Of a stretch of 11,306 nt of DNA, positions 1-6,247 are shown piece after piece. Numbering within the stretch: the stretch's first letter is position 1; the number at the start of each line of letters is the position of its first letter. The DNA lies in UHGV virus genome UHGV-1326493, one strand, 5' to 3'. Origin of the DNA: a virus. The position numbers and the translations under genes are program-made. The notes under the pieces are model-generated. The model was not told the origin of the DNA, did not search any database, and saw only the letters and a program-made list of their open reading frames with translations.

Positions 1-362
1 GTATAAGGGACAGTTACTATGCTCAGGGTTTTTCATTGGCGTTGCTTGGCGAGCCTCTTTTTCAGAATAAGATGGAAGCTTGGATGCATGGCCCTGTTGT
101 CCCTGAGCTTTATCACCGTTATAAACAATATGGTAATGGTGCTATCCCTTCTCCAGAGTCTTTTGATGCTGAAAAATTCAGCGAAGAACAGTTAGAGCTA
201 TTAGAAGAAGTCTGGGATGTTTTTGGGCAATTTTCTGCCTGGAAACTGAGGAACATGACACACGAAGAGTCACCATGGAGATCAAACTATATTGAGGGTG
301 TTGGTGGTTCTGAAATTAGTTCTAAGGAGATGGCAGAGTACTTTGCAACTCGGATTAACTAA
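1..362 (+). CDS. Panacea (DUF4065)-domain protein, 5'-partial; gene starts upstream of the window
   Basis: The frame through nt 3-362 has no stop and reads ...IRDSYYAQGFSLALLGEPLFQNKMEAWMHGPVVPELYHRYKQYG..., matching the YYAQGW..LA..G.PLF...EAW..GPV.PELY signature I recall for DUF4065/Panacea (SocA/GepA-like) proteins. Stop TAA at 360-362. Track ORF 36..362 begins at a TTG internal to this frame. Confidence 0.7.
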   Translation, partial: IRDSYYAQGFSLALLGEPLFQNKMEAWMHGPVVPELYHRYKQYGNGAIPSPESFDAEKFSEEQLELLEEVWDVFGQFSAWKLRNMTHEESPWRSNYIEGVGGSEISSKEMAEYFATRIN

Positions 363-366
363 CGAG

Positions 367-786
367 ATGGCAAGAAAATCTAAAAGGATTATCCCCCCTG
401 CTGAATCTACAGGTAAGTTAAAGTTAGGGCCGCAGTCAGGGGGGAATTCAGATCAAAAGAAACCGAAATTTTCATTCTGTTACATCCAAAGCTCTCACTG
501 CATAACGAAATGCCAAAAAGATGAGAAAGCTGGCTTAGCTGATAAATTATACAGATTAAGTCAACTAACATGGGCAGATATTAAGCAGCAAGGTAGGCAT
601 AAGCTTGGATTTGAGAAGATTGCAAGGGGTGCAATTAAAGCAGGTATCCCCAGTCATATAACGGAAGACGTAGATCATTTCTTGGCTTTTAGATTTGATG
701 ATTTGAAAGCCATGGTTGGTTATCGTCTTGGATCGACATTTTTTGTTATATGGCTTGATAGAGAGTTCAACCTATACAAGCACTAA
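367..786 (+). CDS. hypothetical protein, 139 aa; coupled partner of the Panacea-domain gene, candidate toxin/effector
   Basis: First ATG (367) lies 4 nt after the upstream stop, with only a weak GAG upstream, so translational coupling is likely. Track ORF 292..786 starts at an overlapping TTG. Basic Pro/Gly-rich N-terminus (MARKSKRIIPPAESTGKLKLGPQSGG), then CYIQSSHCITKC, then a ~100-aa domain ending GYRLGSTFFVIWLDREFNLYKH. Stop TAA 784-786, followed directly by a terminator. Confidence 0.55.
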   Translation: MARKSKRIIPPAESTGKLKLGPQSGGNSDQKKPKFSFCYIQSSHCITKCQKDEKAGLADKLYRLSQLTWADIKQQGRHKLGFEKIARGAIKAGIPSHITEDVDHFLAFRFDDLKAMVGYRLGSTFFVIWLDREFNLYKH

Positions 787-790
787 TAAA

Positions 791-814
791 ACCCACCATC
801 AGGTGGGTTTTTTG
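791..814 (+). terminator. intrinsic terminator for the rightward two-gene unit
   Basis: ACCCACC (791-797) / loop ATCA / GGTGGGT (802-808) followed by a T-run through 813, directly after the stop at 784-786. The hairpin also encodes the last codons of mnt (KKPT) on the other strand. Confidence 0.6.
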
Positions 815-1050
815 TACAAATCCTTCAGCGTATCAAACACCATCTTCTTAACAAGTTCGGACTGCTCATCAGCGATGCGTTCCGCATCGTCTCGATAGCC
901 TGAAATTTTGGATTGCCTTGATACAGCATCAGTCACTATCTGAACTAATTCTGAATTAATAGAGCGGCCATTGGATTTGGCTCGCTGTTTTAGTTTTTCC
1001 TTTAATTCGTAAGGTAGCCGCAGATTAAATTGCGGGTCATCTCTTCCCAT
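799..1050 (-). CDS. mnt: Mnt-type ribbon-helix-helix repressor (P22 immI family), 83 aa
   Basis: MGRDDPQFNLRLPYELKEKLKQRAKSNGRSINSELVQIV...GYRDDAERIADEQSELVKKMVFDTLKDLYKKPT matches P22 Mnt as I recall it (ARDDPHFNFRMPMEVREKLKFRAEANGRSMNSELLQIV...DAERLADEQSELVKKMVFDTLKDLYKK). ATG is plus 'cat' at 1048-1050; AAGCGAGG upstream. Confidence 0.9.
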   Translation of the reverse strand: MGRDDPQFNLRLPYELKEKLKQRAKSNGRSINSELVQIVTDAVSRQSKISGYRDDAERIADEQSELVKKMVFDTLKDLYKKPT

Positions 1051-1113
1051 TCTTGATGCCTCGCTTTTGTGAGTGGATCGGCATCTTATTATTTGCTGGT
1101 TGCATCCTCAATA

Positions 1114-1128
1114 AGACCACTGTGGTCT
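1114..1128. promoter_or_regulatory. perfect 15-bp palindrome AGACCACTGTGGTCT, candidate Mnt operator next to a possible mnt promoter
   Basis: Perfect dyad 64-78 bp upstream of the mnt start codon. On the minus strand it is followed by TTGAGG (plus 1106-1111), a 16-nt spacer and TAAGAT (plus 1084-1089), which read as -35/-10 elements. Promoter assignment is by eye only. Confidence 0.4.
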
Positions 1129-1475
1129 CTTTATTTGATTAATAATGCATCACTGCGGCCACGCTGCAGCGATTCCTTGTATCTGGAGCAAATTAAATGA
1201 CAGATATTATAAATAGGAATTGTTATTTAATAATATTTGAAAATGAAAATCATGGACGATAGGAATAAAAGTAGTACTTGTTATTTTTAAGTGACGCATT
1301 AAACGCATAAAGCATATGTCTGTTGATCAAGATTCTTGCTTGTTGTAAAATAATTGTTTTGTTCATGTTGCATAGTTTTAAAGTGAATAGAAGATTATTT
1401 TTCAAAACAATTGCATCTTTGTCTGCAGTCATTCCGTTTTCTTCAATATCTAAATTTTCAAACAGGATGACTAAT

Positions 1476-4208
1476 ATGCCTGATATAACTCCAAATGTTG
1501 TAATTGGGATGCCTTCTCAACTCTTCACTATGGCTCGTTCTTTTAAAGCCGTAGCTAATGGCAAAATTTATATCGGTAAAATTGACACTGACCCTGTAAA
1601 TCCTGAAAACCAGATTCAGGTTTATGTAGAGAATGAAGATGGTTCTCACGTTCCTGTTTCGCAACCAATCGTTATCAATGCTGCTGGATATCCTGTATAT
1701 AACGGACAGATTGCTAAATTCGTTACTGTGAAAGGACACTCTATGGCTGTGTACGATGCTTATGGTACGCAGCAGTTCTATTTTCCGAATGTGCTGAAGT
1801 ATGACCCGGATCAGTTACGGCAGCAATTAGAAGATCCTGATGGTGCTAAAAAATACCCTGAATTACAGATTGCACGATGGCGGGATGATAAAGACGTTCG
1901 CGGGTGGGGGGCGGATGACTCTGGGAATAGAGATTCAACACAGGCTTTTCTTGACGCCGCATCTAGCGCAGGAAATAGTGGTTTGGTTCATGTGCCTTCT
2001 GGTGAGTTTATAGTTGATGCATCGAAAATAGATATTTCACGCTTCTCCGGTGATGGTGTTCTAATCAGTAATGGTGTTCGCATTTCTGTTAATCCGCCGA
2101 TGCAAAGTTTCTCCATTGGACAAAGAAAACTTGCGACCCTGAATTTTGGTGATGATATCAATGCGCCAACTATATATGCGAATGCACAAAATGCATTGCA
2201 GGGAATAGCTTGTGTAAGGCATGAAGGTATTGAGAAGGTTTTTATCACTCAACAGGTTGGAGGTTCTAACTGGGGAACGGACACCCTCACAAGGATCAGT
2301 GAGTGGCACTATACAAGCGATGGTTCGACCCTTTCTGTTGTGACATTTACAGAGCCATTGCCTCTTGGTCACGGTTCAGATCTTTCTGCCACAATAGAGA
2401 ACGGTGAACTATATCTGTTTACAACAACAATTGCTGAGACTGGTTCCTCTCTAGGAGGGAAGGGGTATTCAAAGACAAAATGGAAAGGGGCATCAACATC
2501 TGCTGAAGATATAACTCATTACCGAGTATTTGGTGAGCCGGGTGATAATAATCTGATTAACCTTGCGCAGCGGGCAAGTATTTGTGTATCTAATGATGGG
2601 CGATATGTCATATTAATTGCGACATCAAACGCTGGGACTGGCCGCTTTTTATACGTATATGATCGCAAAGAAGTGGAATCTTCTTCTAACCCAATGAAAG
2701 TTAGACCGATTAATGGTCCTGTTCCACTTGTCCGTGGTAAAGGTCAGTATGGTGCAACGCTTCAGGGTATTACATCAGATAGCAGATATATTTACACAAT
2801 TTGGGGTGGCGTTCCTGCAAGATGCGTAAGGACAGTCCAGATTTATGATATGGGTGGTACGCTAATACGTTCGTTTCCTGTATCACTTGCCGCATCACTT
2901 TATACAGAGACTCAGTTAAATGGTTCTGACTCTAAAATCGGAGTTCCGGTTAGCTTTGAGCCTGAAGGGCTGGCAATAAGAGGTGATGAACTTGTCTGTG
3001 GTGCTATGGATGTATGGAAAAGCGCAGGGGATGTTGTAAGCCATCGTGGTAAAAATTGGGTAAGTACTGTTACTGGTGATAACAAGGGAAATCTTCCGAC
3101 AAACAGGTCTTATTGGTTAAAAACATCGCTTGCAGCGACAAATGGTGAATGGGATTCAGGTGCAACATATAAATCAGGCGATTATACTCGCAGAAATAAG
3201 CATCTGTTTGGAGTAGCAAACCTGTCTGATATTCTTGGCAACCATCCAGTGCATGGCGCAGAATCCGATCCGTATACCGGAACCGCGTATCAATATTATG
3301 CTGGAACTGATATCGCCTTTAACCGTGAGCACGGTTCATTTACTATTGCGATATTTGACGAAGCCATTGGAGAGTATACCAAATCCCTCGAGTTGAATTA
3401 TGGAAATAACCTTAACCTGTTTGATACAGATTACGGCCATGACAATAATTCATGGGTAAGTACGAAAGCAGTATTCGACTCAAACTTTCGAGGTATGCAG
3501 TTCCGTTCTAAAGATGGCAATACTGCGGGTGGTGCTTATATTGATATCCATGCTGCTGATTGTCCATCTGCGGCTGGTGAGTTGATACTTGCCTCTACAG
3601 ATGGAGGTGTCGTCAGACTTAAGCAGGGGAATGTAACAGTATTTTCTGCGACTAAAGATACTACATCGACATGGGCGACGACGACATTAAGGCCAACAAC
3701 TGATAACCAGGTATCACTTGGAAGGTCCGTTAACCGCTTTTCTCAGGTCTACGCAGGGACTGCAACTATAAATACATCTGATGCAACAGAGAAAACGGAA
3801 GTCAGAACTCTTTCCGATAAAGAGCAGGCGGTTGGGTTAGCTCTTGTTGATGAAATTGGTTTTTATCAATGGCTTGATAGTGTAAAAAATAAGGGAGCTG
3901 ATGCCAGACTTCATGCCGGACTTACGGTGCAACGGGCAATGGAAATATTCAGAGAGAATGGACTTGATCCATTTAAATACGGAGCGATCTGCTATGACAG
4001 ATGGGATGCATATACAGATACAGATCCTGCTGTTTATGATGATGAAGGTAACCTTGTTCGTGAGGCTATAACTATTACGCATGAAGCAGGAGAACGCTAT
4101 GCATTCAGAAACGATGAATTACAGTATCTAATGATTGCTGCATTAGGTATACGTCAGAAAAATATTATAAAGAGGATTGAAGAACTGGAAAATAAGTTAA
4201 AAAATTAA
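1476..4208 (+). CDS. tailspike protein: P22-type head-binding N-terminal domain, distinct receptor-binding body, C-terminal intramolecular-chaperone-like domain
   Basis: N-terminus [59 protein letters not shown]...[10 protein letters not shown]...NVLKYDPDQ parallels P22 gp9 (MTDITANVVV...[38 protein letters not shown]...). Start chosen at ATG 1476, with AGGA 8 nt upstream and alignment to gp9 Met1; ATG 1467 is an alternative. The track start at 1323 is a coincidental in-frame extension through AT-rich leader. Stop TAA 4206-4208. Confidence 0.9.
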
Positions 4209-4299
4209 CGGAGTTTAATTAGGTGGTTTGCTGGGAGGGTTGCTTATAATCCTCCACTTTTAATTTGATTGTTAGAATATTATCGCTAATAAAATTACT

Positions 4300-4605
4300 A
4301 TGCATAGTGGTATTTCTATGGACATTACACCAGTTCTTCACGCTCTTTATGCTATAGCTGCACAGACACTGTGTGGCATACTTACCGGGAACTGGGCTTA
4401 CGGGGCGATAGCCGGTTGTGCGTTCTTCATTGCTCGTGAACATACCCAGGCAGAATATCGCTGGATTGAAATGTTCGGGCATGGCAAGCGTATGAATATG
4501 CCGTGGTGGGGAGGGTTTGATCCACGCGTGTGGGATGTGGGAAGTCTGTTGGATTTTTCTTTCCCAATTATCGGATGCTTATTGGTATGGATTCTTGCAT
4601 CGTAG
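4300..4605 (+). CDS. hypothetical small membrane protein (about 95-101 aa, 2-3 predicted hydrophobic helices)
   Basis: ORF reads ...MDITPVLHALYAIAAQTLCGILTGNWAYGAIAGCAFFIAREHTQAEYRWIEMFGHGKRMNMPWWGGFDPRVWDVGSLLDFSFPIIGCLLVWILAS, with hydrophobic stretches at both ends. No convincing SD for ATG 4300 or ATG 4318. A TATAAT hexamer lies at 4245-4250. Sits between the tailspike and sib/attP. Confidence 0.45.
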   Translation: MHSGISMDITPVLHALYAIAAQTLCGILTGNWAYGAIAGCAFFIAREHTQAEYRWIEMFGHGKRMNMPWWGGFDPRVWDVGSLLDFSFPIIGCLLVWILAS

Positions 4606-4750: not shown

Positions 4751-4992
4751 CTGTTACAGGTCACTAATACCATCTAAGTAGTTGATTCATAGTGACTGCA
4801 CATGCTGTGTTTTGCAGTATTATGTAGTCTATTATTTAGACCAAAACCATCATAACACATTGATATTGATGATTTTTCTTGTTTCTCATTCAGCTTTTTT
4901 ATACTAAGTTGGCCTTATAAAAAAGCATTGCTTATCAATTTGTTGCAACGAACAGGTCACTATCAGTCAAAATAAAATCATTATTTGATTTC
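4751..4992. other. attP: complete lambda-type attP (P arm, 15-bp core, P' arm)
   Basis: Core GCTTTTTTATACTAA at 4893-4907 flanked by CA...GTTGG as in lambda attP. Arm-type Int sites are present: P arm CTGTTACAGGTCACTAATAC and TTCATAGTGACTGCA (4751-4800), P' arm ACAGGTCACTATCAGTCAAAATAAAATCATTAT (4952-4984). The P' arm overlaps the 3' end of int, as in lambda. Confidence 0.85.
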
Positions 4993-6051
4993 AATTTTGT
5001 CCCACTCCCTGCCTCTGTCATCACGATACTGTGATGCCATGGTGTCCGACTTATGCCCGAGAAGATGTTGAGCAAATTTATCGCTTATCTGCTTCTCATA
5101 GAGTCTTGCAGACAAACTGCGCAACTCGTGAAAGGTTGGCGGATCCCCTTCGAAGGAAAGACCTGATGCTTTTCGTGCGCGCATAAAATACCTTGATACT
5201 GTGCCGGATGAAAGCGGTTCACGACGAGTAGATGCAATTATGGTTTCTCCGCCAAGAATCTCTTTGCATTTACCAAGTGTTTCCTTCATTGATATCCCGA
5301 GAGCATCAACATGCAATGTTGTAGGGATGGCAATTTTTACGCCTGTTTTGCTTTGCTCGACATAAAGATATCCATCTACGATATCAGACCACTTCATTTC
5401 GCATAAATCACCAACTCTCTGCCCGGTAACAACAGCCAGTTCCATTGCAAGTCTGAGCCAACATGGTGATGATTCTGCTGCTTGATAAATTTTCAGGTAT
5501 TCGTCAGCCGTAAGTCTTGATCTCCTTACCTCTGATTTTGCTGCGCGAGTGGCAGCGACCGGGTTTGTTGTTATATGGCCTTCAGCTATTGCCTCTCGGA
5601 ATGCATCGCTCAGTGTTGATCTGATTAACTTGGCTGACGCCGCCTTGCCCTCGTCTATGTATCCATTGAGCATTGCTGCAATTTCTTTTGTGGTGATGTC
5701 TTCAAGTGGAGCATCAGGCAGACCCCTCCTTATTGCTTTAATTTTGCTCATGTAATTTATGAGTGTCTTCTGCTTGATTCCTCTGTTGGCGAGGATTTTT
5801 TCGTAGCGATCAAGCCATGAATGTAACGTAACAGAATTATCACTGTTGATTCTCGCTGTCAGAGGCTTGTGTTTGTGTCCTGAAAATAACTCAATGTTGG
5901 CCTGTATAGCTTCAGTGATTGCTATCCTCCTGTCTCGGCCTAATCCAAACTCTTTACCCGTCCTTGGGTCCCTGTAGCAGTAATATCCATTGTTTCTTAT
6001 ATAAAGATTAGGGGGTAAATCCCGGTGCTCATGACTTCGCCTTCTTCCCAT
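4981..6051 (-). CDS. int: tyrosine integrase, lambda Int type, 356 aa
   Basis: MGRRRSHEHRDLPPNLYIRNNGYYCYRDPRTGKEFGLGRDRRIAITEAIQANIELF...HELRSLSARLYEKQISDKFAQHLLGHKSDTMASQYRDDRGREWDKIEIK is near-identical to lambda Int as I recall it. R-x-x-R, H-x-x-R, H and the Y in ...MASQYRDD are intact. Overlaps xis by 23 nt. Confidence 0.97.
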   Translation of the reverse strand: MGRRRSHEHRDLPPNLYIRNNGYYCYRDPRTGKEFGLGRDRRIAITEAIQANIELFSGHKHKPLTARINSDNSVTLHSWLDRYEKILANRGIKQKTLINYMSKIKAIRRGLPDAPLEDITTKEIAAMLNGYIDEGKAASAKLIRSTLSDAFREAIAEGHITTNPVAATRAAKSEVRRSRLTADEYLKIYQAAESSPCWLRLAMELAVVTGQRVGDLCEMKWSDIVDGYLYVEQSKTGVKIAIPTTLHVDALGISMKETLGKCKEILGGETIIASTRREPLSSGTVSRYFMRARKASGLSFEGDPPTFHELRSLSARLYEKQISDKFAQHLLGHKSDTMASQYRDDRGREWDKIEIK

Positions 6052-6247
6052 TTTTGATCCTCTTCAAAAGGCTACCTGTTACTGGTCGATTTAAGTCAAC
6101 CTTTACCGCTGATTCGTGGAACAGATACTCTCTTCCATCCTTAACCGGAGGAGGGAATATCCTGCACTCGCGTACCCATCGACGAACTGTTTCAAGGCTT
6201 CTTGGGCGTCGCTGGCGTGCGTTCCACTCCTGAAGTGTCAAGTACAT
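6029..6247 (-). CDS. xis: excisionase, lambda Xis type, 72 aa
   Basis: MYLTLQEWNARQRRPRSLETVRRWVRECRIFPPPVKDGREYLFHESAVKVDLNRP...KKAKS matches lambda Xis. Has the characteristic overlap with the int start. Confidence 0.95.
   Translation of the reverse strand: MYLTLQEWNARQRRPRSLETVRRWVRECRIFPPPVKDGREYLFHESAVKVDLNRPVTGSLLKRIKNGKKAKS

Follow-up and report, generated by a model that had tools for sequence, protein, structure and literature searches.

Panacea, the domain formerly listed as DUF4065, received its present name from Kurata et al. (2022, PNAS, PMC8832971), who surveyed the gene neighbourhoods of DUF4065 and validated nine pairs of a Panacea antitoxin (PanA) with its toxin (PanT), such pairs acting via direct complexes and not as ClpXP adaptors. 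In later work, stand-alone Panacea was found to neutralise a toxin directly via the unstructured N-terminus of the latter, and the domain was proposed to be a sensor (Ernits et al., 2023, PMC10440598). Here we analysed one such pair, panA-panT, located at the left end (positions 1–786) of the virus genome UHGV-1326493, a stretch of 11,306 nucleotides (nt) referred to below as the window. The module is already catalogued as a predicted pair of cluster T1 of the Panacea toxin–antitoxin (TA) systems (PanAT) and is therefore not new; its membership is by domain and synteny, not by functional criteria. Established here are the identities of both genes, which we hold with high confidence, the predicted fold of PanT, its homology with the C-terminal part of the Menshen protein NsnC, the strict synteny of the pair and its context as prophage cargo. 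Taking identification and mechanism together, we modestly favour the reading that the locus is a prophage moron encoding a conditionally active ribonuclease (RNase) controlled by PanA.

The closest described relative is the pair of Salmonella phage vB_SemP_Emek (NC_018275; Emek below), which is 99.9% identical over window positions 14–813, has the same order (A|T) and a stand-alone PanA ('noNTD'), so that at the sequence level nothing separates the window's pair from the catalogued T1 module. In Dataset S1 of PMC8832971 the Emek proteins are listed as PanA YP_006560565.1 (noNTD) and PanT YP_006560566.1 of cluster pT1/T1, with order A|T, a gap of -62, a reciprocity of 4|5 and the LabReport entry 'not Toxic'. 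A second T1 pair in the same dataset, from Escherichia coli MOD1 (WP_089622957.1 / WP_077635758.1, gap -20, not toxic), appears to be the same module as that of the window, its annotated gap fitting the window protein. Both pairs are given as 'mRNase' and 'not toxic' in SI Table S1 (PMC8832971), and the initial annotation of the window, which matched the partner of the Panacea gene to nothing it recognised, is superseded on this point. T1 was found in Chloroflexi, Firmicutes, Actinobacteria, Bacteroidetes, Proteobacteria, Mollicutes and others (PMC8832971); numbered first and present in many phyla, it seems to be one of the most widespread PanT clusters, and has no validated member.

The first gene is read in frame 3 (window positions 3–362, containing ...YYAQGFSLALLGEPLFQNKMEAWMHGPVVPELY...; the translation starts with IRDSYYAQGFSLALLGEPLFQNKMEAWMHGPVVPELY and ends with ATRIN, followed by the stop codon TAA at 360–362). 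The Panacea signature that the initial annotation had seen in it was recovered by the hidden Markov model search proposed there: the 119-residue fragment matched Pfam PF13274 (SocA_Panacea) with an E-value of 1.7e-21 and 77.7 bits, and the full-length, 147-amino-acid (aa) PanA of Emek with 7.6e-25 and 88.5 bits (gathering cut-off 25.7), which places both copies well above the threshold used to define a PanAT Panacea domain. The gene proper, panA (14–362, + strand), comprises the C-terminal 116 codons and the stop codon of a 147-aa stand-alone Panacea (SocA-like, DUF4065) protein, of which some 31 N-terminal codons are missing at the contig edge. At full length PanA is acidic (isoelectric point, pI, 4.6), was assigned to PHROG 1281 and carries the RefSeq label 'Panacea domain-containing protein' (WP_032219532.1). 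SocA of the type VI TA system SocAB from Caulobacter also has a Panacea domain, and the NCBIfam SocA model covers PanA residues 7–121; the score on NF047745 was, however, only 70.5 bits, the equivalog cut-off being 190, and PanT is RelE-like in predicted fold and unrelated to SocB. An assignment of the pair to SocAB was rejected on these two grounds.

The truncation of panA noted in the initial annotation is real, and the edge that causes it is the end of an adapter-bearing contig. Bases 1–13 (GTATAAGGGACAG) were absent from all phage and E. coli matches, which start at base 14, and agree at 12 of 13 positions with the Nextera mosaic end, GTATAAGAGACAG. Since these bases are untrimmed, non-genomic adapter without any phage or E. 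coli match, the truncation is evidently a technical assembly edge devoid of biological meaning. Extension to the left via Emek and E. coli CS5L, as the initial annotation had advised, recovered the complete 147-aa panA and upheld the position of the pair in its genomic slot.

Four nucleotides (363–366, +) separate the TAA of panA from the ATG of panT, a spacing that suggests translational coupling. ATG 367 opens a 139-codon open reading frame (ORF) ending in ...GYRLGSTFFVIWLDREFNLYKH, with the stop codon at 784–786, exactly as the initial annotation had placed it. Its product, PanT (367–786, +; cluster T1 of Kurata et al.), is a basic protein (pI 9.7) without a Pfam family and falls into PHROG 8366, which has no known function. 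In older annotations the gene begins at TTG 301 or TTG 343; the true start is evidently ATG 367, which is favoured because Met1 is invariant in an alignment of 40 PanT sequences, because the Prokaryotic Genome Annotation Pipeline (PGAP) and current RefSeq annotate a protein of 139 aa (WP_032219545.1, E. coli CS5L), and because lengths of 139, 147, 160 and 161 aa stand side by side in the databases for one and the same sequence.

Residues 1–33 (367–465, +) form a basic, low-complexity extension that is predicted to be disordered, with 8 K/R and 15 G/P/S/Q/N residues and means of 55–65 for the 10-residue blocks of model confidence over residues 1–30, in line with the basic disordered N-terminus described initially. 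This segment, absent from canonical RelE toxins, may be a PanA-binding handle by analogy with the PanA of B. choladocola, which contacts the unstructured N-terminus of its toxin (PMC10440598). The small Cys/His cluster described in the same place exists as residues (C38, H44, C45 and C49), but a zinc or other metal site is not credible and was rejected, as C45 is the only one of the four to reach a conservation of 90% or more, with C49 appearing in the majority (>=50%) consensus.

A database search returned 180 relatives of PanT, all unnamed, about 137 aa long and distributed over many phyla, and an exhaustive profile search extended the family to 1522 clusters at 50% identity (E <= 1e-3); the best 150 relatives in that search were all stand-alone proteins of about 135–145 aa. 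A family of this size with invariant residues indicates that the panT ORF is more than a chance reading frame. Invariant or near-invariant positions in the 40-sequence alignment were P33, F35, W69, H78, G81, E83, P95, R109, V117, G118, R120, W129, D131, Y137 and H139, and in a set of 39 distinct pairs from phages and genomes, H78, E83, R109, D131, Y137 and H139 each reached a conservation of at least 95%; as candidate catalytic residues these six are placed on the elements expected for YoeB/YafQ-type sites.

The AlphaFold2 model of PanT had a predicted local distance difference test score (pLDDT) of 86 and a predicted template modelling score (pTM) of 0.74, with low confidence for residues 1–30, and presented the order beta(34–36), alpha(51–65), alpha(69–74), beta(83–86), beta(104–111), beta(114–121), beta(124–131). 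The modelled domain (residues 34–139; 466–783, +) thus has helices packed on a small antiparallel sheet, as expected for the fold of RelE-type toxins, BECR (Barnase/EndoU/Colicin/RelE). The fold comparison ranked Thermus thermophilus RelE highest (7.6), followed by E. coli HigB and RelE3 (6.6 each), YoeB (6.5) and YafQ (6.2), and Foldseek retrieved the same families with target-normalised template modelling (TM) scores of 0.5–0.6. ParE scored about 5, and we regard it as very improbable that PanT is a ParE-like poison of DNA gyrase instead of an RNase. With RelE, YoeB, YafQ and HigB the protein has in common the predicted beta-alpha-alpha plus antiparallel sheet architecture, a small size, a basic charge and a position downstream of an acidic partner, and its conserved Glu/Arg/His/Tyr set with a C-terminal Tyr-x-His is reminiscent of YoeB. 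It differs from these toxins in the additional disordered N-terminus of about 33 residues, in a long loop at 87–103 and in having Panacea as its partner instead of a RelB, YefM, DinJ or HigA antitoxin. The initial guess that the C-terminal domain might be RelE/YoeB-like therefore stood at the level of the fold, and failed at the level of sequence: structure prediction gave a RelE-like fold, while the proposed searches with RelE/ParE, HigB and YoeB models produced no Pfam match.

A more specific relationship was found with Menshen, a validated anti-phage defence system. The PADLOC model of NsnC matched PanT residues 31–135 through model positions 178–279/284 with an E-value of 4.3e-6, and all 40 PanT family members matched it as well (best E-value 1.9e-10), so that PanT carries a homologue of the C-terminal effector domain of NsnC. 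This domain, 'PB-BECR1', was described as a BECR RNase domain with YafQ as the closest structure and an H-R-H triad (PMC12065111), and the conserved His, Arg and His of PanT fit this triad. The similarity to Menshen is confined to the effector domain: PanT (139 aa) stands alone, lacks the inPIN N-terminal domain of NsnC, is flanked by panA and mnt and not by NsnA (ParB-DUF262) or NsnB (ABC ATPase), and would have PanA, if anything, as its control. Neither Panacea nor SocA is mentioned in the Menshen paper (PMC12065111), and the link appears to be new, as neither the PanAT nor the Menshen publication seems to draw it. Another candidate label, the NCBIfam 'MAG6450 family' (E-value 0.05), was dropped; the literature on it consists of Mycoplasma agalactiae locus lists that give no function.

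The association of the two genes was examined in 89 loci (80 from IMG/VR plus others). The panA gene lay directly upstream of panT on the same strand in 86 of them, with a gap mostly between -14 and +14 nt; these collapse to 39 distinct PanA/PanT pairs. Each of five distant genomic homologs (about 45–55% identity) had a Panacea gene encoding some 145 aa immediately upstream. These five were located in an Aeromonas P2-like prophage, flanked by tail gene S and baseplate gene V, in Solidesulfovibrio beside a P22-type portal gene, in a cyanobacterium beside a type I restriction-modification (R-M) HsdR gene, in an acidobacterium among housekeeping genes, and on a metagenomic contig. Within the Aeromonas prophage (loci L004/L005, 2564–3417) the cassette sits between the tail-completion gene S and gene V, and on account of this P2-like copy the cassette can be said to recur in the accessory slots of phages that are unrelated in type. 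Pairwise identities of PanA and of PanT were correlated (r = 0.89 over the 39 distinct pairs), the charges of the two proteins are opposed (pI 4.6 vs 9.7), and the G+C content of the pair (0.39–0.42) is below that of the adjacent ejection genes (0.49). The PanAT definition of a two-gene unit (a gap of <=100 nt, occurrence in >=2 species and reciprocity) also applies, with 4 nt here and a Kurata reciprocity score of 4|5. Synteny, coupled divergence, opposed charges and low G+C content are together the signature of what is evidently an autonomous, horizontally moving two-gene module.

The same data dispose of the suggestion in the initial annotation that the true toxin could lie upstream of the truncated Panacea gene, panT being a bystander. 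The sole ground for it was that the window is cut at the 5' end. In Emek and CS5L, panA is preceded by about 370–395 nt of intergenic DNA and then by a gene on the opposite strand, and the unit of PanA followed by its partner was kept in the 86 loci amid unrelated surroundings, which refutes this alternative and leaves it with practically no credence. The opposite-strand gene itself (4142–4531, -, in locus L001) is gp14 of Emek, similar to Sf6 gene 38, with no Pfam match, a PHROG assignment (2651) and no known function; its N-terminus resembles a signal peptide by eye, and the slot may thus contain a further accessory or exclusion gene here, just left of the window.

On this basis a mechanism is put forward tentatively, by analogy with the described systems; we see it as a nearly balanced call that falls just on the doubtful side. 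PanA would bind PanT directly, plausibly via the N-terminal tail of the latter, and would keep an RNA- or ribosome-directed nuclease silent. The trigger would most plausibly be an infecting phage sensed by the Panacea domain, or else the loss of PanA, whereupon PanT would be freed or activated. The candidate active site, H78/E83/R109/Y137/H139, would then cut RNA, probably on the ribosome like RelE, YoeB, YafQ and HigB, and the resulting arrest of translation would protect the lysogen in the manner of abortive infection or stabilise the prophage.

A number of results weigh against this proposal. At the level of sequence, the PanT family profile found no match among all PDB chain sequences at E <= 10, hhalign of the family with E. 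coli YoeB produced no alignment at a probability of 0.2%, and a Pfam scan of PanT and all 40 family members gave only noise (GAD and DUF6800, E > 0.04); PanT thus fell outside the curated RelE/ParE/HigB/YoeB/YafQ sequence families, and since the first two comparisons were empty its likeness to RelE is purely structural. The Foldseek E-values were weak too, the best being 0.048. PanA matched none of the PADLOC models, consensus scans of window positions 1–1500 and of the region upstream of the Emek pair detected no plus-strand promoter for the pair, whose promoter region falls outside the window, and our search of the later literature for a role of PanAT in phage defence returned nothing specific to the PanA/T1 family. 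The putative Emek and MOD1 toxins were reported to show no toxicity upon arabinose induction from pBAD33 in E. coli BW25113, so that the pair dropped out at the first step of validation and its neutralisation by PanA is given as n/a; the one T1 member reported toxic, from C. cadaveris, was not neutralised by its PanA (PMC8832971). Finally, in some loci panA has been lost and panT kept. In locus L027 (3688–4423) all that a deletion has left of panA is some 22 C-terminal codons, now joined in frame-like fashion to a lambda-I-like tail(-assembly) ORF as a fusion, and the PanT of this locus is intact at 143 aa with every conserved residue present; in E. coli phage phiv205-1, otherwise 99.1% identical to the window, a 1-nt deletion in an A5 run interrupts panA and leaves panT intact. 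The latter was not accepted as a firm loss of PanA, because the absence of one base from an A5 run could stem from a sequencing error. Retention of panT without panA is unexpected for a potent constitutive toxin and agrees with the published non-toxicity. Degradation in other loci took other forms, with N-terminally truncated panT remnants lacking PanA in L052 and L055 and an internal stop codon in panT beside an intact PanA in L058 and L061.

The weight of the toxicity tests depends on what was expressed. The annotated gaps of -62 and -20 correspond to starts at TTG 301 (161 aa) and TTG 343 (147 aa), and the Emek and MOD1 ORFs that were tested appear to have been these over-long forms, with 22 and 8 extra N-terminal residues, respectively. 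As the constructs appear to have used these annotated starts, the published non-toxicity is not decisive. It still lowers the probability of a classical TA reading: a non-toxic second ORF, which the initial annotation had named as evidence against its own proposal, is what was reported for both proteins (PMC8832971), subject to this caveat on the starts. The general remark in the same paper that the native host may be required for toxicity applies poorly here, because E. coli is a native host.

Negative toxicity tests and loci with panT alone are best accounted for if the two genes form a sensor–effector pair, in which PanT is inert by itself and PanA acts as the sensor, activator or obligate co-factor that switches the RNase on at a phage cue. 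Two nearly identical T1 proteins were tested and neither was toxic, loci with panT alone occur in nature, Menshen employs the domain of PanT as its effector and regulates it through fused and partner domains, and a sensory role of Panacea was favoured by Ernits et al. (PMC10440598). Other stand-alone PanAs, on the contrary, neutralise their toxins directly, the pairing of an acidic with a basic protein and the coupled, antitoxin-first gene order are classical features of type II TA systems, and the ORFs in the negative tests appear to have been extended at the N-terminus; overall, this explanation, the main rival of the proposed mechanism, seems unlikely to us, albeit worth serious consideration.

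Non-toxicity would likewise be expected if PanT had the RelE fold and was no nuclease at all, serving as an RNA- or ribosome-binding regulator or as the phage's own factor in the lytic cycle or against host defence, with PanA as its chaperone or partner. The published assays, the placement outside Pfam and the RelE-family sequence groups, and the presence of the pair, which has no known defence phenotype, in the moron slots of phages of several types are all compatible with such a role. The strict conservation of His/Glu/Arg/Tyr/His over wide phylogenetic distances argues instead for catalysis, PanT shares homology with an effector domain from a defence system that has been validated, and the pair also occurs in chromosomal contexts other than phages, next to R-M genes, which makes a non-catalytic PanT quite improbable. 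The conditionally active RNase under the control of PanA is retained as the working interpretation.

The genomic position of the pair agrees with the P22 immI (sieA-type) slot next to mnt proposed initially. In Emek and CS5L it lies upstream of the tailspike gene, with mnt on one side and, on the other, a small reverse ORF and a gene 16-like gene for DNA transfer; the order in CS5L is DNA-transfer protein, small reverse ORF, WP_032219532.1, WP_032219545.1, Arc-family (mnt) gene and tailspike. Window positions 14–790 were present at >=95% identity in 48 of 5426 complete E. coli genomes. The cassette is thus evidently a moron of P22-like (Lederbergvirus) prophages of E. coli and Salmonella, inserted between the ejection-protein genes and mnt. 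On the P22 map sieA lies between gene 16 and mnt, and the pair has the same accessory position in P22-like genomes. The two are non-homologous: SieA, which blocks the injection of DNA, is a single protein of the inner membrane (PMC10883804), as opposed to a soluble two-protein cassette here. The P22 SieA paper (PMC10883804) contains nothing on alternative cargo in the sieA slot, and none of the accessions of the pair were present in the NetFlax supplementary files searched.

On its right the pair is bordered by mnt (799–1050, -), which defines the immI slot and is an Arc/Mnt-family repressor gene (PF03869, E-value 3.3e-21; PF11423, E-value 1.4e-18) outside the module. Between the convergent panT and mnt genes, and overlapping the last mnt codons, lies a G+C-rich hairpin (788–811, assigned to neither strand; AAAACCCACC-atca-GGTGGGTTTT, then TTGT) followed by T-rich sequence, for which direct folding gave -15 kcal/mol and z = -4.6 and which is marked as a terminator in Emek and epsilon34. 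It was missed by a terminator consensus scan of window positions 1–1500, probably because an A/U-extended stem consumes the T-tract. In P22-like phages that share only the mnt side (epsilon34 and Gally) the matches begin at 777–790 and include the annotated terminator, and for this reason the hairpin is assigned to the mnt-side backbone; it is probably bidirectional and not private to panA-panT. The initial claim that the pair has its own terminator was consequently right about the hairpin and wrong about its ownership.

In the window mnt is followed directly by the tailspike gene, with neither arc nor ant in the intervening 1051–1475; CS5L has the same layout, and Emek has mnt-arc-orf-ant instead. 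The mnt gene of the window is thus evidently an orphan repressor without an antirepressor to control. The tailspike gene (1476–4208, +) is mosaic: a P22-type head-binding N-terminus (PF09008, E-value 1.8e-65) is followed by a receptor-binding body of another kind, whose C-terminal domains are endosialidase-like and Peptidase_S74 (intramolecular chaperone). The ORF as listed, from 1323, begins too far upstream, and ATG 1467 or 1476 is the likely start. Between the tailspike gene and the att core, a 101-aa ORF (4300–4605, +) with hydrophobic stretches, no Pfam match, a PHROG assignment (1443) and no known function stands where, on the P22 map, the lysogenic-conversion genes are located, and is possibly a second moron. 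An exact phage-lambda att core (GCTTTTTTATACTAA) is found at 4893–4907, just downstream of the integrase gene, and the region 4981–6247 (-) encodes an integrase with a lambda-type arm-binding domain (PF09003) together with a small ORF resembling Xis. Close relatives in E. coli that share the panAT-mnt-tailspike block use IntS at tRNA-Arg, so that the integration module must have been swapped. Tailspike gene, att core and integrase gene are contiguous, as expected of a non-integrated (phage or circular) form.

As a discovery, the pair carries little weight: the PanAT catalogue already contains the pair itself, with the Panacea domain and the 'mRNase' partner, RefSeq labels the first gene, and the catalogue entry together with the published non-toxicity removes most of the novelty. 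The tests of the enterobacterial T1 proteins appear to have been mis-started, and the 139-aa ORF could either overturn or confirm the negative result. The link between PanT and NsnC connects a family of TA 'toxins' to a validated anti-phage effector. Its occurrence in the sieA slot and in a P2-like moron slot, combined with loci that have panT alone, makes the family a reasonable case for deciding whether Panacea is an antidote or a sensor. We consider it rather unlikely, yet of consequence, that PanA/T1 is no classical TA system and forms a minimal two-protein prophage immune module, in which a RelE-fold RNase with the effector domain of Menshen, harmless by itself, is turned on only when Panacea senses an infecting phage; if true, this would explain both the published non-toxicity and the loci with panT alone, and would provide the first concrete case for the proposed sensor role of Panacea.

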